A model generated the notes under the pieces. That model had not been told where the DNA came from, made no database searches, and saw only the letters and a program-made list of their open reading frames with translations. Below, one piece after another: positions 444-50,414 of a stretch of 50,465 nt of DNA. Numbering within the stretch: the stretch's first letter is position 1; each line of letters begins with the position of its first letter. This DNA is from a virus. Its lineage: Duplodnaviria > Caudoviricetes. Where the stretch lies: the IMG/VR virus record IMGVR_UViG_3300020045_004315, positions 1 to 50,465 of that record; one strand, written 5' to 3'. The position numbers and the translations under genes are program-made.

Positions 444-629
444 ATGAAAAAATCAGATTTAAAGATAAAAGAAGTAATCAGGCATACAAAAGCCTCAACT
501 TTAAAGAATGTTTTGGATAAGAGCAAAGAAAGCGGGGTTAATATACATGATTTGCGGGATTATATTTATACCGAATTGGATAAACTGGATTTTGATATTA
601 AGGATAAAGAGGTTTGTTCTTTGAGGTAA
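444..629 (+). CDS. hypothetical protein
   Basis: ORF with ATG at 444; its stop TAA lies within the GGTAAC box that starts the cassette array. Confidence 0.6.
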   Translation: MKKSDLKIKEVIRHTKASTLKNVLDKSKESGVNIHDLRDYIYTELDKLDFDIKDKEVCSLR

Positions 630-747
630 CGTTTGACGGTATCAGCAGTATTTGCATCACAAAAATTAAATTGAAAAACAAATGACGAAATTAGCAGAAA
701 ATAATCCACAAGGCACGGCAAATATTGCTGATGACCGTGTGTTAGCC
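624..747 (-). repeat. attC-like site 1
   Basis: GGTAAC 625-630; arm ACGGTATCAGCAGTATTTGC 636-655 pairs with GCAAATATTGCTGATGACCGT 718-738 (one G.T, one bulged G); GTTAGCC 741-747. Confidence 0.8.
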
Positions 748-981
748 ACCGTTTTTGATTTTAACGAGCGTGTGGTTTGGGATTCAGGATTTGGATATGA
801 AATAGGACACTTTTTAGGTGAAGGTAATTCGTATGATACTTGGTTGATTGATGTGCGAACTGGTTTAATTGTAGAACCTTGTTCGCATTCAAAAAGCGAA
901 GTATTCAAATATACGAACGAGCTTATCAATAAATTAACCGCCAAATATGGTTATGAGAAACGATTCTCGGAGCTGTTTTAA
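682..981 (+). CDS. cassette A hypothetical protein (starts inside the attC-like loop)
   Basis: 99 aa ORF; ATG follows an A-rich stretch at 661-681. Confidence 0.7.
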   Translation: MTKLAENNPQGTANIADDRVLATVFDFNERVVWDSGFGYEIGHFLGEGNSYDTWLIDVRTGLIVEPCSHSKSEVFKYTNELINKLTAKYGYEKRFSELF

Positions 982-987
982 AATGGT

Positions 988-1112
988 GGCTAACGATTTG
1001 CATAAGAGCAGAAAGGAATGCAGTGGATGTATTAGGTACTGTAAATTCAATCCGAAGCCACTAAACAAAAGGTTATATAGTAACGCCTTTTTGCTTTTAT
1101 GCTTGGTTATGC
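988..1112 (-). repeat. attC-like site 2
   Basis: GGCTAAC 988-994; GCATAAGAGCAGAAAGG 1000-1016 pairs with CCTTTTTGCTTTTATGC 1086-1102 (two G.T); GTTATGC 1106-1112. Confidence 0.8.
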
Positions 1113-1152
1113 TTTCGTGCTTTAATTAAATTTTAAACCTAAAACTGATATT

Positions 1153-1395
1153 ATGATACAAAAAGTAGAAATGTTTACAGTAAAATGCGATAACTGCGGT
1201 AAGTTATACGAAGATGAACACCAAGGATTTTGTGCTTGGAATTACGAAGGAGCGGCATGGGAATATGCAAGCGAAGAAAATTGGATTAGAGAAGATGATA
1301 AACATTATTGCCCTGATTGCTATGAATATGATGAAGATGATATTTTAACTATAAAACCAGTTAAAAGCAATGCCGCTTCACAGCATGAAGCATAA
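1153..1395 (+). CDS. cassette B small zinc-binding protein
   Basis: CDNC ... HYCPDC pairs; acidic, 80 aa. Confidence 0.75.
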   Translation: MIQKVEMFTVKCDNCGKLYEDEHQGFCAWNYEGAAWEYASEENWIREDDKHYCPDCYEYDEDDILTIKPVKSNAASQHEA

Positions 1396-1519
1396 CGTTA
1401 AATGTTTGAAACGTAGGCGAGATTGAAAACGCTTACCTATCCACCAATACAGGACTTAAATAGAATTACAAATATTAATAACCGCACTAACCGCCTATGT
1501 TTTAAACACTTTGTTAGGC
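1390..1519 (-). repeat. attC-like site 3
   Basis: GCATAAC 1390-1396; TGTTTGAAACGTAGGCG 1403-1419 pairs with CGCCTATGTTTTAAACA 1492-1508 (two G.T); GTTAGGC 1513-1519. Confidence 0.85.
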
Positions 1520-1544
1520 GTATGTGCTTTTAAATCTAAAATTT

Positions 1545-1751
1545 ATGACACAAGAACAAAAGACACAATTGATTCAGGATTTCGCAACAGCAATTAATAA
1601 AGTTAGTGCTGAAAATAACAGTAATACTCCTGATTTTATTTTAGCAAATTATTTAGTAATGTGCCTAGAAAATTTCGACCATATTACAAATATGCGTAAT
1701 GATTGGTATAAACCAAACATAGGTTATGAACCATGCACGAATGTCTGTTAG
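1545..1751 (+). CDS. cassette C small phage protein (ENNSNTPDFILANYL motif)
   Basis: ATG at 1545 after an A/T-rich leader; the motif resembles a recurring small phage protein family of unknown function. Confidence 0.7.
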   Translation: MTQEQKTQLIQDFATAINKVSAENNSNTPDFILANYLVMCLENFDHITNMRNDWYKPNIGYEPCTNVC

Positions 1752-1757
1752 CATTAC

Positions 1758-1836
1758 GCCTAACGATACGTATAAACTCAAGTTACTTTGGCGGTGTGTG
1801 AGCCTGTGGGGTAATTTGGTTTATACGAGGTTACCG
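1758..1836 (-). repeat. attC-like site 4
   Basis: GCCTAAC 1758-1764; CGTATAAACTCAAGTTAC 1769-1786 pairs with GTAATTTGGTTTATACG 1811-1827 (one G.T, one bulge); GTTACCG 1830-1836. Confidence 0.8.
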
Positions 1837-1870
1837 CCAGTATTTTGTTAAACATTTTAAAATTAAAATT

Positions 1871-2167
1871 ATGTCAAAAATTAAAAAAGTAGAATACAAG
1901 CATGATGGTAAAGTTTTTAAAACTCAATACCTATATTGGTGTAATGGATGTGGTTATGAACATGCTTTTGCATTAAGAAGCGAACAGGGACATCATGATT
2001 TTAATATGGATTTGGATAATCCAACAGTATCGCCCTCATTATTACAAAACTTTACTCCGGGTAAATTGTGTCACTCATTTATCAAAGAAGGTAAAATTCA
2101 ATATTTATCAGATTGTCAACATCACTTAGCAGGACAAGCAATCGAGTTACCTGAGTATCCGTCTTAA
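1871..2167 (+). CDS. cassette D Cys/His metal-binding protein (DUF6527-like)
   Basis: WCNGCGYEH, PTVSPSLL, CHSF..G.IQYL.DC.H.LAGQ motifs. Confidence 0.7.
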   Translation: MSKIKKVEYKHDGKVFKTQYLYWCNGCGYEHAFALRSEQGHHDFNMDLDNPTVSPSLLQNFTPGKLCHSFIKEGKIQYLSDCQHHLAGQAIELPEYPS

Positions 2168-2231
2168 TATTGGCGGTAACACTTGTATATACCCAACTCA
2201 TGTATAACAAATCGACATTAACTAATTGATT

Positions 2232-29814: not shown

Positions 29815-30954
29815 TTAAAACCCAAAGTCGGCATTTCTCACCTGTTCGCTAACTGTCAACCCCATTGATCTAAGGTATATCATTGTGATTTTAATATCAG
29901 AGTGTCGGCATTGACTCATGACTACGTAAGGATCTTTTGTCGCCGTAAATAAAGCGCACACTCCCGAATGCTTAAAGGCATAGAAGCCTTTCGTTTTATC
30001 AATCTTTAATTTATTGGCTATTATCCTGAATTTATAACTGAAGAAATCAGGCTTCTTTGTTTTATCCTTGCTTACCTTGCAATACCTCCCGAATACATAC
30101 CAATCAGAAGGGAAATTCTCTAAATTCATAGACTTGACAATTGATTCCATTGCCCGTGGGATTGTTACGGATTGCTGGGTTCTATTTTTGGCACTCAGGG
30201 AGCTCACAGTAACAGTCATTTTAACAAGGTCAATGTCTTTGACCTGTAATTCTATTAATTCACTCCTACGAAGGAAGCAGAAGTAAACGAACATGCATGC
30301 AGCATAATAATGAGGATCATTTTTTTCAAATTTACTTTTCAAAAGGTCTTTTTCCATTTCACTAAAAGGAAAGTTTTTCCCGTGATCCTCCTTCAATTCT
30401 TTAATCCCTACGAACGGATTTGATTTATAGCTTTCCTGATCCCGCTCAATGATCCCGTTAAAAAACGCTTTCAAAATCCCTAATTGCGTATTATGAGATT
30501 TTCCGCTGTATTTTCGATCAACAAGCAGATAGTCGAAGTATTCCCTTGCGATTTTATTTGTAAACCTTTGAGGTAAAATATTGCCGTAACCGTGCGCTTT
30601 TAACCATTTTTGAAACATGTTTGAAATGTCGGTGTAATTTCTGACCGACTTTTTTTTCATCGATGACCGCTTAGTTTCAAGAATATTATCGAATGCCTGG
30701 CATAGCGTTATTGAAAGTTCGGGATTGGTCTGTTTTCCAGTGAAGGGATTCCAACCGTTTTTTAACAGGTCGGAATAGGCAAATCGAAGATCATTTGCGG
30801 CTGACGTTCTTTCCTTTTTGGTAAGGGATTTAATGTTCAACCCTTGCTTAAATTTAAATAGCTTGGTTTCTTCAGTTTCCGGATTAACGGCACGAAAAAA
30901 CACGAACCATTCTTGGCCCGTGTTACTGATTTTTGGTTCTGTAAATTTTATCAA
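29815..30954 (-). CDS. int: tyrosine integrase
   Basis: LRRSEL..L...DIDL, SAKN, FYAFKHS, HSD...TMIY; adjacent attP. Confidence 0.9.
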   Translation of the reverse strand: MIKFTEPKISNTGQEWFVFFRAVNPETEETKLFKFKQGLNIKSLTKKERTSAANDLRFAYSDLLKNGWNPFTGKQTNPELSITLCQAFDNILETKRSSMKKKSVRNYTDISNMFQKWLKAHGYGNILPQRFTNKIAREYFDYLLVDRKYSGKSHNTQLGILKAFFNGIIERDQESYKSNPFVGIKELKEDHGKNFPFSEMEKDLLKSKFEKNDPHYYAACMFVYFCFLRRSELIELQVKDIDLVKMTVTVSSLSAKNRTQQSVTIPRAMESIVKSMNLENFPSDWYVFGRYCKVSKDKTKKPDFFSYKFRIIANKLKIDKTKGFYAFKHSGVCALFTATKDPYVVMSQCRHSDIKITMIYLRSMGLTVSEQVRNADFGF

Positions 30955-32402: not shown

Positions 32403-33152
32403 ATGAACTCAATTCAGATTTTAGATGTAAGCCACGGATTTGACTTAACAATTAATACCGATGGTGAAATGTCGAGTTTAACTGACTTATGGAGAGCTAC
32501 AGGTTCAATCGAAACAAAAGCTCCTAAATTCTGGTTAGACAATGAACAAACAAAATCTTTTATTCAGGCAGTAAGCAGATTACAAAAGGTAACCCCTGAT
32601 TACCTTATAAAAGTAAAGAGGGGTAAGGGTGGCGGAACGTGGGCTCACAAGCTTATCGTTTCAGAATATGCTCAGTATTTAAATCCTGATTTAGCGGTTT
32701 TGGTCAATCGTGTATTCTTTGAAAGAGTTGCAGAAGAAAAGAACCCTGACCTTATAGTTGATCGTGCTTTTGCTACCTACAAAAAACACGGTAAATCTGA
32801 TGAGTGGATCGGAAAGAGGCTTGAAGGTAAATATTTCAGGAATACATTCACCACAACATTGGCAGCCCACGGAGTTGATAAGGACGGTTTCAGAGATTGC
32901 ACAAACGCAATTTATAAACCATTATTTGGCGGTAAGGTTTCCGAAGTTAAAACAAAACGCAACATTCCACAGAACGCAAACTTTAGAGATACGGTTTCGG
33001 TCATTGAACTTGAAAGTATTAAATTCTCTGAATCCCTCGCTTCTGAAAAGATCAAAAAGCAAAACATTTCAGGAAATTATAATTGCGAAATGGCAAGCCT
33101 TAACGCATCGCAATTAATTGCGCAGGCTGTAAAACAATATCTAAACTCATAA
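32403..33152 (+). CDS. KilA-N domain protein (antirepressor-like)
   Basis: SLTDLWRA.G.....PKFWL, KRGKGGGTWAH......YAQYLNP. Confidence 0.85.
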   Translation: MNSIQILDVSHGFDLTINTDGEMSSLTDLWRATGSIETKAPKFWLDNEQTKSFIQAVSRLQKVTPDYLIKVKRGKGGGTWAHKLIVSEYAQYLNPDLAVLVNRVFFERVAEEKNPDLIVDRAFATYKKHGKSDEWIGKRLEGKYFRNTFTTTLAAHGVDKDGFRDCTNAIYKPLFGGKVSEVKTKRNIPQNANFRDTVSVIELESIKFSESLASEKIKKQNISGNYNCEMASLNASQLIAQAVKQYLNS

Positions 33153-38999: not shown

Positions 39000-39677
39000 A
39001 TGAAGTATCTAATCAAAAAAGCTAAACTAACCAAAGGTCGAACCTTGGAGGTTGAGCTTACCGAAATCAACGATGACAATACAGAGAACGAAGTCACTAA
39101 AAAGTGTTCTCAATTGGTCCATGATGATCTTATCAATGCCATGGACAAGTTAAAATTCCATCTTGCTCACATGTGCGACACGAAAGAATCGGACAGCTGC
39201 ACGGAGTATGAGGCTGATAATGTTCAGGCGCTTGACAGGATTAAAATCACATCCTTTAGCGTGTCCGGTTCAGCCGATAATGAAGGTGTTTGTCTTGTAG
39301 GCTCACGAAAGATCGGACAAAAGGTATTGAATTTGATTTCTCCATTTACGGAGTATGAAAATGAAGATGACCAATATCAGTTCGGTCAGGAGCTGGCAAT
39401 CGACATTGAAGCCTTAAAACATGAGGTTAACGAATATTTGTTTAACGGGAAATATGCCATTAAACAGCTCGAAATTCCTTTCGACAAAGAGCCTGGCGAT
39501 CCTGATGACTTCGAACACGAAAAAGAATTCGACGAAGTTGGAAAGGCTGTTCTTGGCCACATGGCCGAAATTATCAACCCGAAGAAAGGGAAAGGTAAAA
39601 AAGGTGTAACTGTTGATTTTATCCCTCATCCAAATTTTGCTGTAGGTGCCGAAATGCAACAGGCCGAACAGTTTTAA
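39000..39677 (+). CDS. hypothetical protein
   Basis: 225 aa acidic ORF. Confidence 0.75.
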   Translation: MKYLIKKAKLTKGRTLEVELTEINDDNTENEVTKKCSQLVHDDLINAMDKLKFHLAHMCDTKESDSCTEYEADNVQALDRIKITSFSVSGSADNEGVCLVGSRKIGQKVLNLISPFTEYENEDDQYQFGQELAIDIEALKHEVNEYLFNGKYAIKQLEIPFDKEPGDPDDFEHEKEFDEVGKAVLGHMAEIINPKKGKGKKGVTVDFIPHPNFAVGAEMQQAEQF

Positions 39678-39809
39678 CAAGAAAGACTATTGAATTTCAT
39701 AGTTCGTGAATCCTGTCACCATGCAGCGCGAACAAATTATTTATTCGACATAAAATCATGTTACAGACCTTCCCCTTGTGAAAGTCGGAGGTTTTTAAAG
39801 GTAGAAATT

Positions 39810-40031: not shown

Positions 40032-41686
40032 TGGAAATCATTACCACTCAAAATTATTTCAAGTTCAATTTTGCCTACAATCCACGCATTGTTGAAGCTA
40101 TAAAGAACCTACCTGAAAGGAAGTTTCTTGCAAACGAAAAGACATGGATTGTACCCGTTAAATACCGAAGGGATGTTGAAATATTTTCTCACAGATACGG
40201 TTTTTCGTGGAACCTTGGAAAGCCTGAGCCTGTGGTAAATTATAATATTCCTGAAATGCCAAAACTTCAGGTTGATATTCCTTTAACCGGAAAGATGTTT
40301 CCTTATCAATGTGACGGGGTTGCTTATAACCTGATTCATAAACGGGCTATTGTTGGAGATGAGCCGGGACTTGGTAAGACTTTGCAAGCCATTGCCACCA
40401 TAGTTGCAACAAACGCTTATCCGTGTCTTGTAATATGTCCTAGCTCATTAAAGCTCAACTGGCAGCGTGAATGGGAAAGATGGACAGGACGTAAATTCAC
40501 CATGATTCTGGAAGATTCGAATAAGAAAAACTATCAGCTTTATTTTGAATCAGGAATGGTCAAAGTTTACATAACAAACTACGAAAGCTTGAAAAAATAC
40601 TTTGTCAAATCAATCGACAAAGGTGAAGCCAAAAACCTACGGTTAAATCATATCAAATTCGATGAACGGATTAACATTTTTAAGTCTGTTATCATTGATG
40701 AGCTTCATAGGTGCAAGGAAATCAAAACCCTTCAGACTAAGCTAACCAAAGGTATTTGCACCGGAAAAGAATATATTCTTGGTTTAACCGGAACGCCTGT
40801 AATTAACAAACCGAAAGATCTTATTTCTCAGCTTGGTATTATCGACAGTCTTTCATATTTCGGAGGTTACAAAAACTTCATTGAACGGTATTGCGCCGGT
40901 GATCGTGAAGCCTCAAACCTCAAAGAGCTCAATTACAACCTAAATAAATACTGTTTTTATCGCAGGGAAAAGAAAGCGGTTTTGAAAGATTTGCCGGACA
41001 AAATGCGACAGGTTGTTTCTTGTGAAATCAGCAACCGAAAAGAATACGCTGATGCTGAAGCGAGCTTAATTGACTACCTGAAACAATGGAAAGATGCTTC
41101 TGATGAAAAGATTCAATCAGCCTTAAAAGGTGAGATTATGGCCAGGATCGGAATCTTAAAAAACATCTCGGCCCGTGGCAAACTCAACGATGTGTACGAC
41201 TATATCAATGATGTTTTAGAATCAGGTGAAAAGCTGGTAATATTCGGACACCTGAAAGAAGTAATTGCAGCCATAAAACATAAATTTCCCCATGGCACGG
41301 TATCGGTGACCGGCGACGATGATATGAAACAACGTCAGGCATCAGTTGATGCTTTCCAGAATGATCCACGGTGTAAATTGATTGTATGTTCTATCAAGGC
41401 CGCCGGCGTAGGTTTAACTCTTACCGCTTCATCTCGGGTTGCATTTATTGAATTTCCATGGCATTCTGCCGACTGTGACCAATGCGAAGATAGAACACAC
41501 AGAATAGGCCAAAAAGAAAGCGTTCAGGTGACTTATTTCCTCGGACGTAACACAATCGACAATCATATCTATCAAATCATCGAGAGAAAGCGAGAAATAG
41601 CCAAAGCGGTCACAGGTTCAACCGAAGATATTCAGATCGACTTTGTAAATGAAATTGCAAACCTTTTTAATCAAGTGAAACCATGA
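40031..41686 (+). CDS. SNF2-family helicase with HARP-like N-terminus
   Basis: GDEPGLGKT, DELH, LTGTP, AAGVGLTLT, QCEDRTHRIGQ. Confidence 0.9.
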   Translation: MEIITTQNYFKFNFAYNPRIVEAIKNLPERKFLANEKTWIVPVKYRRDVEIFSHRYGFSWNLGKPEPVVNYNIPEMPKLQVDIPLTGKMFPYQCDGVAYNLIHKRAIVGDEPGLGKTLQAIATIVATNAYPCLVICPSSLKLNWQREWERWTGRKFTMILEDSNKKNYQLYFESGMVKVYITNYESLKKYFVKSIDKGEAKNLRLNHIKFDERINIFKSVIIDELHRCKEIKTLQTKLTKGICTGKEYILGLTGTPVINKPKDLISQLGIIDSLSYFGGYKNFIERYCAGDREASNLKELNYNLNKYCFYRREKKAVLKDLPDKMRQVVSCEISNRKEYADAEASLIDYLKQWKDASDEKIQSALKGEIMARIGILKNISARGKLNDVYDYINDVLESGEKLVIFGHLKEVIAAIKHKFPHGTVSVTGDDDMKQRQASVDAFQNDPRCKLIVCSIKAAGVGLTLTASSRVAFIEFPWHSADCDQCEDRTHRIGQKESVQVTYFLGRNTIDNHIYQIIERKREIAKAVTGSTEDIQIDFVNEIANLFNQVKP

Positions 41687-48261: not shown

Positions 48262-49398
48262 ATGAGCGCTTCATTTGTACCCACTGATTCCGATTCTATA
48301 CTTGCCGAAGTTCTTTCTGACTTCACAACCACAACAGGCCGGACACTTTTACCAGGTCAGCCGGAATATGCGTTTTGTGCTTCCATGGCTTACAGATTAG
48401 TTTTGGAACGTCAGAGAATGAACGCAGTCGGGAATAGTCAACTTCTGGCATTTTCAACCGCTCCAATTCTTGATTATTTGGTCCAGCTTGTAGGCATCGA
48501 AAGGCTCGCACCTCAATACGCTGTTTGCACTTTGCATTTTACTTTGGTTTTAGGCCATGGCGATGTAATTATTCCTTCAGGTACCAGAGTAATTTCTACA
48601 GATGGAAAGGTCGTATTTGCTACCAAGAATGATGTTTCTGTTTTGGCAGGAATTCTGGTTGCGAATGTAGATGCTGAATGTATGACATCCGGATTGATTG
48701 GTAATGATTACGCAATCGGAACCATCTCAATGATTCAGGATGTGCAAGCCTACTTATCAACCGCTTCAAATATTGATATTACTGCAGGGGGCTCAGATGA
48801 GGAAACGGACGAACAATTAAGGGCACGGGCATATAAGGCGCCGTCCGCTTTTTCGGTTGCTGGTTCACGTGAAGCATATAAGTTTTTTACTTTTTCCGCT
48901 TCGCCGCTTGTGATCGACGTATCGGTTGTATCTCATTCGGACAATCCTGTTATTCCATACGGTCAGGTGAATATTTACCCACTACTCGCAAACGGCAATG
49001 TAGCAGATGGAGCATTGACCGCCGTAATTCAGGCTGCATTATCTGACGAAAAGGTCAGGCCGCTCACTGATACTGTCGTGGTGCAAACACCTGTCAAAGT
49101 TCTGTATGAGGTAAACGTTGATATTATAAAATTCACAAAAGCGAGTAATTCAGATATTCTGGCTTTGGTCAATCCTACTTTAATCGCATTCGGAAAAGCC
49201 AAAATGAAGATCATGGGTCTTGATATTGTGAATTCAGAAATTGAAAGTATTTGCAGGGTTGCCGGTGTATATGACCTTACCGTAACGATTATCCCGACCG
49301 GAAAGTCATTAACCGGCGATAACCTTGTAATGGATTTGAACGAATTCCCTTACTTAAATAATTTCACTGTCAACATAACCGGCGCAAACAATGGATGA
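48262..49398 (+). CDS. baseplate J/gp47 protein
   Basis: GRTL.PGQPE, IPSGTRV, GGSDEETDEQLR.R...AP..FSVAGS..AY, VRPLTD.V.V. Confidence 0.95.
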   Translation: MSASFVPTDSDSILAEVLSDFTTTTGRTLLPGQPEYAFCASMAYRLVLERQRMNAVGNSQLLAFSTAPILDYLVQLVGIERLAPQYAVCTLHFTLVLGHGDVIIPSGTRVISTDGKVVFATKNDVSVLAGILVANVDAECMTSGLIGNDYAIGTISMIQDVQAYLSTASNIDITAGGSDEETDEQLRARAYKAPSAFSVAGSREAYKFFTFSASPLVIDVSVVSHSDNPVIPYGQVNIYPLLANGNVADGALTAVIQAALSDEKVRPLTDTVVVQTPVKVLYEVNVDIIKFTKASNSDILALVNPTLIAFGKAKMKIMGLDIVNSEIESICRVAGVYDLTVTIIPTGKSLTGDNLVMDLNEFPYLNNFTVNITGANNG

Positions 49399-49897
49399 GA
49401 TACTGAAAATATTTGAACCTCTGTTTAAAAAATGGATTGATGATGTTGATATGTCGCCGTTTATGGTTTACATGATTGATGCTGTCGACGCTTCAGCCCT
49501 TCCGTATTTAGCAGAACAATTCAACGTGCAAGGCTATAGAGGATGGGATTTGGCAGTCACAGAAGCCGACAAAAGAGAGCTTTTAAAAAACGCCATTGCT
49601 ATTCAAAAGAAAGTTGGAACTCCCTATTCAATCAAACAAGCTCTAAAGGCTATCGGTTTTCCAAATGTTGTAATTAACGAACATATCGGAGTAAGAAATT
49701 ACTATGATGGCACTTTTAATTATTCAGGGCTAATTTTTTATGATGGTGGCGCCGGGGCTATTTGGGTGAATTTCTCGGTTGAAATATCGGTTGCTGATGC
49801 TATTTCCGATGCAACTAAAGAACTGGTAAGATTATTAATTAACGAATATAAACCGGCTCGTTGTGTGCTGGTAGATTTAACATTTAACACTTTATAA
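49391..49897 (+). CDS. tail protein I (P2_I-like)
   Basis: LPYLAEQFNV.G..GW, KRELLK.AI...KK.GTP..IK..L, EYKPARC.L. Confidence 0.9.
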   Translation: MDEILKIFEPLFKKWIDDVDMSPFMVYMIDAVDASALPYLAEQFNVQGYRGWDLAVTEADKRELLKNAIAIQKKVGTPYSIKQALKAIGFPNVVINEHIGVRNYYDGTFNYSGLIFYDGGAGAIWVNFSVEISVADAISDATKELVRLLINEYKPARCVLVDLTFNTL

Positions 49898-49898
49898 A

Positions 49899-50414
49899 AT
49901 GGCAAATTTTGTAGAAGAAGAAGTATATCCTGTAAATGTTCATGTAATTGGCACGGACGAGCTTGTTCAGGGTGGCGACGGTGGCCCGACAAATGTCCCT
50001 ACCCAGCAACTAGTAAATAGGACAAAATGGCTTAAAAAACAAGTCACAGATATTTTGGAGGCCATTACAGGAATAACAAACAAGAATCCAGAAAACCTGA
50101 TAACTCGAAAATTCAACATTGGAGCATGGAATATGGTTTCGGGTGGACTTTACAAAGTTATTACACTCTCAAGTCTATCGATCGACAGAGCAAAGATAGT
50201 AGGTTATCAGGCTTTCATTTTGTCTGACGATATTACCACCGACGAAATCGTATCAGTTCCATTATCTGCCGATGGTCACATCGAGGTGATAAACGAGATT
50301 GAAATGATATCTACAGAACCATCGTTTAGGTTGCACCATGGGGCATTATTTGCCAATGCGAGATATTCAGGCGCCGTAAACCGTGGATACATCATTGTAA
50401 CACTCATCCCATGA
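49899..50414 (+). CDS. short tail fibre / fibre-attachment protein
   Basis: V.GG.GG..N....QL.NRT.WLK N-terminal motif; follows protein I. Confidence 0.7.
   Translation: MANFVEEEVYPVNVHVIGTDELVQGGDGGPTNVPTQQLVNRTKWLKKQVTDILEAITGITNKNPENLITRKFNIGAWNMVSGGLYKVITLSSLSIDRAKIVGYQAFILSDDITTDEIVSVPLSADGHIEVINEIEMISTEPSFRLHHGALFANARYSGAVNRGYIIVTLIP

Follow-up and report, generated by a model that had tools for sequence, protein, structure and literature searches.

In integron biology, a cassette is taken to consist of a gene and, after it, its attC site, with the gene on the top strand of that site, and how genes acquire an attC is a long-standing open question. Reverse-oriented cassettes, with the open reading frame (ORF) on the attC bottom strand, are known from sedentary chromosomal integrons (toxin-antitoxin cassettes, for example), where they are a minority and have their own promoters. 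Here we describe a stretch of 50,465 bases that is the complete IMG/VR virus record IMGVR_UViG_3300020045_004315 (hereafter, the window), in which four imperfect hairpins of attC type separate four small ORFs. The gene-sense (plus) strand is the structural bottom strand of these hairpins, the reverse of chromosomal arrays, and this is general for a family of related hairpins in other viral contigs; reversal, exceptional among chromosomal cassettes, is the rule across the whole phage-array family. [quoted passage not shown]

The closest published systems are the phage CALINs, of which 17 were found among 10,705 phage genomes (Qi 2023, PMC9892861). IntI1 recombined five of the six phage attC sites tested there, one of them from a Polaribacter phage, and bottom strands performed better than top strands. 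Like the window, those CALINs are attC arrays with small ORFs in phages without IntI, and one published case, P12002L, is a Bacteroidota phage, as the source of the window is likely to be. The available text of that report calls same-direction cassettes ‘typical’ and mentions only ‘divergent directions’, for P12002L; consistent inversion of the cargo, start codons within attC loops and the present family in metagenomic viral contigs do not appear in that text. Apart from Qi 2023, our literature searches for the family returned only unrelated papers, and they likewise gave no account of reversed polarity of the cargo, of start codons in hairpin loops or of this family in Bacteroidota phages. 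By role, the nearest phage analogue is the PeSL (promoter–stem-loop) cassette of T4-type phages, described as a mobile regulatory cassette (Arbiol 2010, PMC2839356; Comeau 2014, PMC4122927). As far as the available text of those reports goes, PeSLs resemble the window hairpins in being repeated stem-loops between small accessory ORFs in plastic phage regions, in lying upstream of the gene they serve and in being linked to modular gene gain, loss and replacement. The window hairpins, unlike PeSLs, have attC architecture, a unique pair of complementary boxes for each ORF and no T-run, and they differ from each other. PeSLs are promoter-plus-terminator motifs in which an early promoter comes after a stem-loop terminator; they are conserved in sequence and recombine by homology.

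In each window hairpin the left box ends in TAAC and the right box begins with GTTA. On the plus strand, AAC stands at 628, 992, 1394, 1762 and 2178, and GTT at 741, 1106, 1513 and 1830. The sites, which separate ORFs A–D (listed further below), are as follows.

624–747, plus strand: attC-like site 1 (hairpin 1); box AGGTAAC, 5-nt spacer, 20/21-bp stem (636–655/718–738) with G648.T725 and an extra G at 733 on the 3′ arm, 62-nt loop containing the ATG of ORF A, 2-nt spacer, box GTTAGCC
988–1112, plus strand: attC-like site 2 (hairpin 2); box GGCTAAC, 5-nt spacer, 17-bp stem with two G.T pairs, 3-nt spacer, box GTTATGC
1390–1519, plus strand: attC-like site 3 (hairpin 3); box GCATAAC, 6-nt spacer, 17-bp stem with two G.T pairs, 4-nt spacer, box GTTAGGC
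1758–1836, plus strand: attC-like site 4 (hairpin 4), of a short class with 71 nt between the boxes; box GCCTAAC, 4-nt spacer, stem of 9 bp, an extra T on the 5′ arm and a further 8 bp with one G.T, 2-nt spacer, box GTTACCG
2174–2180, plus strand: terminal lone box CGGTAAC with no attC-like hairpin behind it; end of the array

A simple stem scan recovered hairpins 1–4 with 15, 15, 17 and 11 Watson–Crick pairs, respectively; four more 11-pair hits in the rest of the record are at chance level, with twenty shuffles yielding 0–6 hits each. Rfam at gathering thresholds had no match anywhere in the window. Each ORF is bracketed by its own inverted repeat, the box after one hairpin being complementary to the box before the next over 7–15 nt in all four cases: 741–755/980–994 (GTTAGCCACCGTTTT / AAAATGGTGGCTAAC, 15 nt, 93% complementary), 1106–1112/1390–1396 around ORF B (GTTATGC / GCATAAC, read directly from the sequence), 1501–1522/1755–1776, which holds the complementary boxes GTTAGGCGTA (at 1513) and TACGCCTAAC (1755–1764), and 1830–1844/2166–2180 (GTTACCGCCAGTATT / AATATTGGCGGTAAC, 15 nt, 93% complementary). 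The same complementarity is seen in other contigs around homologues of ORF A and around a second module, X, introduced below. This is a trait of integron cassettes, because the two boxes meet when a cassette circularizes. The geometry shows that it fits either polarity and by itself says nothing about which hairpin goes with which ORF. The array begins with a complete site and ends with the lone TAAC box, and a search upstream of box 1 for a partner to it gave nothing above chance. Insertion of an element resembling a miniature inverted-repeat transposable element was considered for the hairpins and ruled out: their flanks are unrelated beyond TAAC and GTTA, and there is no target duplication.

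The strands of these hairpins are not equivalent. The four stems contain six substitution mismatches, and on the plus strand every one of them is G.T, with G always on the 5′ arm and T always on the 3′ arm, and computed DNA folding energies for the plus and minus strands are −16.6/−13.8, −14.2/−10.9, −11.96/−9.9 and −11.4/−9.3 kcal mol⁻¹ for hairpins 1–4, an advantage for the plus strand of 2.1–3.3 kcal mol⁻¹ in all four. The first-pass annotation of this DNA had claimed both the G.T bias and the better folding of the plus strand, and the arm alignments and energies bear it out. In 400 random 122-nt coding windows of the same record, the strand difference had a mean of −0.45 (sd 1.85), and 19% lay at −2.0 or lower; a plus-strand bias at four of four hairpins is thus unlikely by chance, yet modest as evidence from four sites alone.

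The comparison with chromosomal sites of the same phylum was more informative. Among 401 genomes sampled from the phylum, 113 had an IntI (TIGR02249) score above the curated cut-off. The reference set came from the flanks of 28 intI genes on the side where an array is expected; 16 of these held at least two hairpins, 85 hairpins in all. The ORFs of these arrays point away from intI, and a site comes after each of them, with the pattern ...TAAC-AA-GCGTTT-C-AAG-T-CGG-A-CGC...GCG-CCG-CTT-AAACGC-CGGGTC-GTTA.... Along the ORF-sense (top) strand, TAAC is followed by a shorter spacer than the one that precedes GTTA in 81 of 85 sites, and extra bases number 199 on the 5′ arm against 16 on the 3′ arm. 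The available text of Nivina 2016 gives the canonical attC bottom strand a G, an A or T, and a T as extrahelical bases of its 3′ arm. On the ORF-sense strand, the phage hairpins mirror the chromosomal pattern, and their antisense strand reads TAAC, 2 nt, 5 bp and an extra C, exactly like the chromosomal top strand. The plus strand of the window accordingly carries the features of a bottom strand: a long spacer after TAAC, a short spacer before GTTA, better folding, an extra G some 15 nt from the end of the 3′ box and T residues opposite G at about 18 and 22. The longer 5′ spacer had been entertained as an argument against inversion and was dropped, as real Bacteroidota attC bottom strands show the same asymmetry.

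A covariance model built from 43 chromosomal sites beside intI, in top-strand orientation, was run unfiltered on the window, plus and minus strand alike. Hairpins 3, 2 and 1 take the top three places, each as a full-length hit on the minus strand.

1387–1521, minus strand: model hit on hairpin 3, 16.1 bits
985–1114, minus strand: model hit on hairpin 2, 15.4 bits
621–749, minus strand: model hit on hairpin 1, 14.4 bits

Across 13 related phage loci, every one of 35 model hits (E up to 1) falls on the strand opposite to the genes; the top score is 31 bits (E = 4e-5). In a census of open frames between hairpins, the bottom-like strand carries the longest frame in 34 of 36 phage segments, against 4 of 41 chromosomal ones, where the top-like strand has it in 37; the four chromosomal exceptions hold no clear genes. 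The phage hairpins are therefore shown to be related in structure to the attC sites that adjoin intI in Bacteroidota chromosomes. Common to both are the TAAC/GTTA boxes, the spacer asymmetry (1–2 against 5–6 nt), an extra base 5–6 bp into the stem, a size class of approximately 95–130 nt and complementary boxes around each ORF. They differ in that chromosomal ORFs lie on the top strand ahead of their attC, with true extrahelical bulges and an adjacent intI, whereas phage ORFs lie on the bottom strand, two of the bulges are replaced by G.T, the start codon is often in the loop and there is no intI. The view of the first-pass annotation that the conventional top strand is the minus strand, and that all four ORFs are inverted with respect to standard cassettes, is supported by both the chromosomal asymmetry and the model, a comparison with Bacteroidota attC that the annotation itself had proposed as a check; the cargo does not lie on the attC top strand ahead of an attC of its own.

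The hairpins fetched from related viral contigs repeat this pattern. A finder for TAAC...GTTA hairpins gave 98 sites in the fetched loci, 56 of them non-redundant. On the sense strand these have 5–6 nt after TAAC and 1–2 nt before GTTA, and their mismatches comprise 92 G.T (G in the 5′ arm, T in the 3′ arm), against four T.G, 33 C.A or A.C and 26 others, with peaks at positions 17–19 and 22–23. An extra G on the 3′ arm is present in 15 of the 56, in 14 of these at position 15 from the 3′ box end, the position it also has in hairpin 1; the T positions that are extrahelical in canonical attC are here paired with G rather than bulged. The 5′ arm bears an extra T in 15 of the 56. Across 50 aligned family members TAAC and GTTA are invariant, and compensatory double changes occur at all 11 predicted pairs, in 9–22 sequences each. 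The sense strand folds better in 25 of 27 distinct family sites.

Textbook polarity, in which each ORF owns the hairpin downstream, the minus strand is recombinogenic and the crossover is G|TT on the plus strand, is very hard to reconcile with these data, and we regard it as highly improbable. The ORFs do run towards a hairpin, as in textbook cassettes, the box complementarity suits it equally well, and the conserved mismatches are unpaired C.A on the minus strand, which could mimic extrahelical bases. All of the orientation tests (spacers and mismatches, chromosomal sites, covariance model and frame census) point in the opposite direction, however. Moreover, ORF D would then have no site, hairpin 1 would fall to ORF 438–629, which lacks a matching upstream box, and one viral locus (L018) has ORF A, at 88% nucleotide identity, with a different downstream hairpin. 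For phage CALINs more widely, orientation calls need checking against gene direction.

If the plus strand is the bottom strand, the mobile unit follows from attC chemistry. A single-stranded, folded plus strand would be cut at AA|C of the left box by an integron integrase supplied by the host; this crossover point is taken from the chemistry established for integrons (Nivina 2016, in its available text). A cut of the folded bottom strand at that point would make the hairpin and the ORF downstream of it the unit that moves, giving four putative cassettes.

630–993, plus strand: putative cassette 1, hairpin 1 and ORF A, with the predicted crossover AA|C on the plus strand
994–1395, plus strand: putative cassette 2, hairpin 2 and ORF B, by analogy with cassette 1; complementary boxes
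1396–1763, plus strand: putative cassette 3, hairpin 3 and ORF C; complementary boxes GTTAGGCGTA/TACGCCTAAC
1764–2179, plus strand: putative cassette 4, hairpin 4 and ORF D; 15-nt boxes, 93% complementary

For cassette 1, there is comparative evidence. Window positions 627–989, comprising hairpin 1 and ORF A, recur at 89% identity between unrelated flanks on a scaffold of a Bacteroidetes metagenome-assembled genome (MAG; locus L067). Contigs from four metagenome runs start to match the window at 625 or 627, with unlike sequence before, and one metagenome contig has 627–807 behind 372 unrelated bases (no sequencing run listed contained more than 11% of the sampled words, and no RNA run was among those listed). 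Hairpin 1 followed by a second ORF, X, stands behind three different upstream genes. The converse, a shared upstream ORF and hairpin with differing downstream ORFs, was not found among the family loci compared. The first-pass annotation had assigned each ORF its upstream hairpin, and would have been contradicted by homologues that travel with the downstream one; co-inherited blocks do pair a hairpin with the ORF downstream, and for hairpin 1 and ORF A the proposed unit stands. As a generalization it fares less well, since hairpin cores often recur alone, with neither neighbour, and ORF module X has moved without its hairpin.

Hairpin 1 illustrates the mobility of the core. It is a discrete recurring module (627 to approximately 752) at 89–97% identity in other viral contigs, where at least nine different bodies follow it, each continuing in frame after G|TTA, and at least eight different sequences precede it. 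In IMG/VR, 14 stretches contain an exact 21-mer of hairpin 1; a 19-mer searched in genome contigs gave eight stretches, seven of which are chance matches in unrelated genes. Exact 17-mers of the stems of hairpins 2 and 3 found only unrelated sequences in IMG/VR, in three and one stretches, respectively. A protein search with ORF A matched 22 viral loci, 13 of them through the body only and nine through residues 1–25 only. The boxes themselves extend to about 12 nt, with a 50-member consensus close to ATTGCnnCTAAC for the left box and GTTAGnnGCnGT for the right one (window 619–630 and 741–752), and different ORFs, A in the window and X in L029 and L033, have the same 10-nt box, GTTAGCCACC/GGTGGCTAAC. 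Two motifs are conserved in the loops of the long class, ACCAC(T/A)AAACC just 5′ of the 3′ arm and (T/A)ATCAAA(T/A)TA(C/T) in mid-loop; the family loops also have some likeness to those of chromosomal sites (GTTCG...), of which the covariance model makes use.

A number of observations count against the array as we read it, and against its proposed units in particular. Twenty-nine distinct pairwise comparisons show hairpin cores shared without either neighbour. Hairpin 4 has a 94.5% copy in L065 over 1761–1833 only, with both flanks unrelated, and contigs from two unrelated metagenome runs have the core of hairpin 3 (1403–1516) without its neighbours. Between two contigs, module X is 100% identical over 269 nt, beginning at most 8 nt from GTTA and stopping precisely at TAAC; their copies of hairpin 1 are 93% identical and the downstream DNA is unrelated. 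A module resembling ORF D is bounded at 1830 and 2180 in one run. The bounds of these two modules mean that exchange at the GTTA box also happens, which could reflect occasional recombination of the other strand, gene conversion between hairpin copies or some other route. No excision circle or deletion joint was seen, in a search of contigs that could not reveal circles or rare joints (four ‘skip’ joints have sides of 20–22 nt and are unreliable). As for the sites themselves, the outer box bases (AGGT, GGCT, GCAT and GCCT) fit RYYYAAC/GTTRRRY loosely, hairpins 2 and 3 have G.T pairs where attC has true extrahelical bases and contain no true bulge, the E-values of the model hits in the window are marginal (0.08–0.21, roughly calibrated) and the short hairpin 4 received no hit from the chromosomal model. 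An integrase of the required type is also missing from most of the viral records, as described below.

Taken at face value, the recurrence of cores and bodies on their own suggests a different scheme, in which hairpin cores (TAAC...GTTA) and ORF bodies (GTTA...TAAC) shuffle independently by exchange at both boxes, and a hairpin belongs to neither neighbour. Recombination of both strands, an enzyme acting on the boxes of approximately 12 nt or microhomology-driven phage recombination could underlie it. The many neighbours of hairpin 1 on both sides, the homology of hairpin 4 and the hairpin 3 core that stops at the boxes on either side, the greater identity of module X than of its hairpin, the extended box consensus and the RecT-like protein and exonuclease encoded in the window all suit this scheme. 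Near-identical attC sites beside unrelated cassettes are, on the other hand, normal in chromosomal arrays (six sites with the same arms in L094), so core-only sharing is partly to be expected and needs no independent mobility. That the sites are so strictly asymmetric between strands speaks for a single preferred strand, and the blocks that are co-inherited always pair a hairpin with its downstream ORF. We consider independent shuffling unlikely as the general explanation; independent exchange of cores and ORF bodies nevertheless remains a live complication for the units of hairpin plus downstream ORF. One viral contig (L052 and L058) contains two copies of a hairpin 1-type site with ORF X, with differing loops and upstream neighbours, and this contig bears on the gene-conversion route.

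For the array as a CALIN with reversed cassettes, the host is the obvious candidate as the source of the enzyme. The only tyrosine recombinase of the window (29815–30954, minus strand) lies 27 kb from the array and scores 48.5 bits on TIGR02249 against a cut-off of 265; it is a generic tyrosine recombinase. At E ≤ 0.001, nine of ten array-bearing viral records had no match to the IntI/Xer-type model, and none of the ten exceeded the cut-off (five of the nine are 99–100% complete). The absence of an adjacent intI makes the array a CALIN rather than a complete integron. The available text of IntegronFinder 2.0 reports one complete integron in Bacteroidetes among RefSeq complete genomes. Many of the intI genes in our genome sample adjoin clean attC arrays (L089, L092, L094, L098, L100 and L102–L120).

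A hairpin that precedes its gene can serve as a 5′ leader, and the reversed cassettes would use it in this way, with the cargo transcribed together with the late-region genes of the phage. ORF A shows how closely site and gene can be interwoven. The first-pass annotation had it start within hairpin 1 and read through the right arm and GTT box, which the coordinates confirm: the ATG lies in the A-rich loop, the frame runs through the 3′ arm, and the junction G741|T742 falls exactly between codon 20 (GTG) and codon 21 (TTA). In the family, 27 of 57 distinct hairpins have an internal ATG from which a frame extends across the 3′ arm and GTTA for 30 or more codons beyond, although a few of these frames look spurious. 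In most, the ATG is 54–84 nt into a site of 117–130 nt and the junction is usually xxG|TTA. For hairpin 1 and about half of the family, the loop would thus provide the start codon and the 3′ arm some 20 N-terminal residues in frame with the cargo body. The encoded leaders are alike where the DNA is constrained, with ‘..NP..’ from the apical AAACC motif and ‘VLA’ or ‘VLG’ from GTGTTAGC, which suggests that the likeness comes as a by-product of the structure of the site. Where homologues of ORF A have no such hairpin, a short N-terminus of their own leads directly into the conserved core; thus the hairpin-encoded leader in the window replaces a native start.

Some loci show remnants of this arrangement. 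In L018 (2910–3020), the closest homologue of ORF A (88% nucleotide identity) stands behind a truncated hairpin that keeps TAAC, the spacer, the 5′ arm and the ATG-bearing loop and lacks both 3′ arm and GTTA box; the ORF from the loop runs straight into the ORF A core, and this looks like a cassette fixed in place. A copy of hairpin 1 in L057 is without its left arm and forms part of a longer upstream frame (MKEAENKNN...LLAENNPQGTANIADDRVLG), so the leader-coding half of a hairpin can persist as plain coding sequence. In the window, the TAA stops of ORF 438–629 (627–629) and ORF B (1393–1395) lie inside TAAC boxes, so that one and the same box serves recombination and terminates the gene upstream.

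The loop-borne start codons raise the question of whether these hairpins are mainly mRNA elements, affecting stability or translation near start codons, with the G.T bias reflecting tolerated G.U pairs in the transcript. The G.T pairs are indeed on the transcribed sense strand, nearly half of the hairpins combine a start codon in the loop with a coding 3′ arm, and the hairpins lie between co-directional genes. [quoted passage not shown] The preponderance of G on the 5′ arm (92 against 4), at fixed positions, is also unlike neutral G.U drift, and we find this explanation improbable. Sites for RNase III-type processing were rejected as well, since a cut in the lower internal loop would part loop-borne start codons from their ORFs.

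We would go further only tentatively, to an extension of the reversed-cassette reading that we hold to be doubtful: Bacteroidota phages may run a cassette economy on host integron machinery with reversed polarity, using attC as a portable 5′ adaptor. An adaptor would bring leader, start codon and some 20 codons, joined in frame at G|TTA to bodies without a promoter or even a start codon, and adaptors and bodies might be recombined combinatorially, because exchange is seen at both boxes. Were this correct, the family would offer a visible example of an attC becoming attached to a gene, and reversed polarity would keep the cassette pools of phage and host mutually unexpressed while they share one recombinase. 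Quite apart from this extension, a phage-borne family of sites has the opposite arrangement to, and is related to, the chromosomal attC of the same phylum, is often part of coding sequence and has module boundaries exactly at the recombination boxes. It offers testable material on strand choice by Bacteroidota integrases, on cassette genesis and attC swapping and on the passage of genes between the arrays of phage and host.

Ordinary small accessory genes of phages make up the cargo.

682–981, plus strand: ORF A, 99 aa, codons 1–20 from the loop and 3′ arm of hairpin 1
from codon 21 of ORF A, plus strand: ORF A body, a family with a conserved core starting near ‘..WDSGFGYE’
1153–1395, plus strand: ORF B, 80 aa, zinc-ribbon-like (CxxC...CxxC), phrog_17873
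1545–1751, plus strand: ORF C, 68 aa from the ATG at 1545, phrog_18819
1871–2167, plus strand: ORF D, 98 aa, DUF6527, phrog_3362

ORF A has no match in Pfam, NCBIfam or PHROG. Relatives of ORF B at approximately 50% identity are present in seven viral contigs, without flanking hairpins of the attC-like kind. By tblastn, ORF C has relatives in 23 phage records, mostly Arthrobacter and Mycobacterium phages, and ORF D in 273; the same search with ORFs A and B against 50,697 phage records gave no matches.

By gene content, the window is a temperate phage of myovirus-like type. It encodes terminase, portal, head, sheath, tape-measure, baseplate and endolysin proteins, and also the integrase already mentioned, repressor-like regulators, the RecT-like protein and exonuclease, helicases and methyltransferases. 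The host is likely to belong to the Bacteroidota, because the only copy of the element in a bacterial genome is the one on the Bacteroidetes MAG scaffold and because the HNH gene resembles those of Polaribacter phages. The array sits directly 5′ of the genes for this HNH endonuclease and the small terminase subunit. At 15 loci with related large terminases (39–75% identity), no such hairpins were found 5′ of the terminase; the array is therefore not conserved among the closest structural relatives of the phage.

The published Bacteroidota phage P12002L (L066, NC_028924) can be compared directly. The best hit of the covariance model there is a 60-nt site at 30003–30062 (plus strand, 17.6 bits, top-strand orientation), which lies between two minus-strand DNA methyltransferase genes and is hence antisense to them, the same inversion as in the window. 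It may be the active attC2 of Qi 2023. Weaker family-like hairpins, with CAAC/GTTG boxes, are found in P12002L at 32798–32924, 39119–39244, 39519–39709 and 40758–40948.

Immediately after the terminal lone box of the window, positions 2181–2215 hold a small imperfect inverted repeat (TTGTATATAC ... GTATAACAA) without GTTA, which may be a remnant of the site where the array was built. At the ends of the record, baseplate, tail and tail-fibre genes follow the replication module on the right (48262–50414), and on the left (2–406) the record opens within its first ORF. It looks either circularly permuted or as though it ends inside a second block of tail genes.

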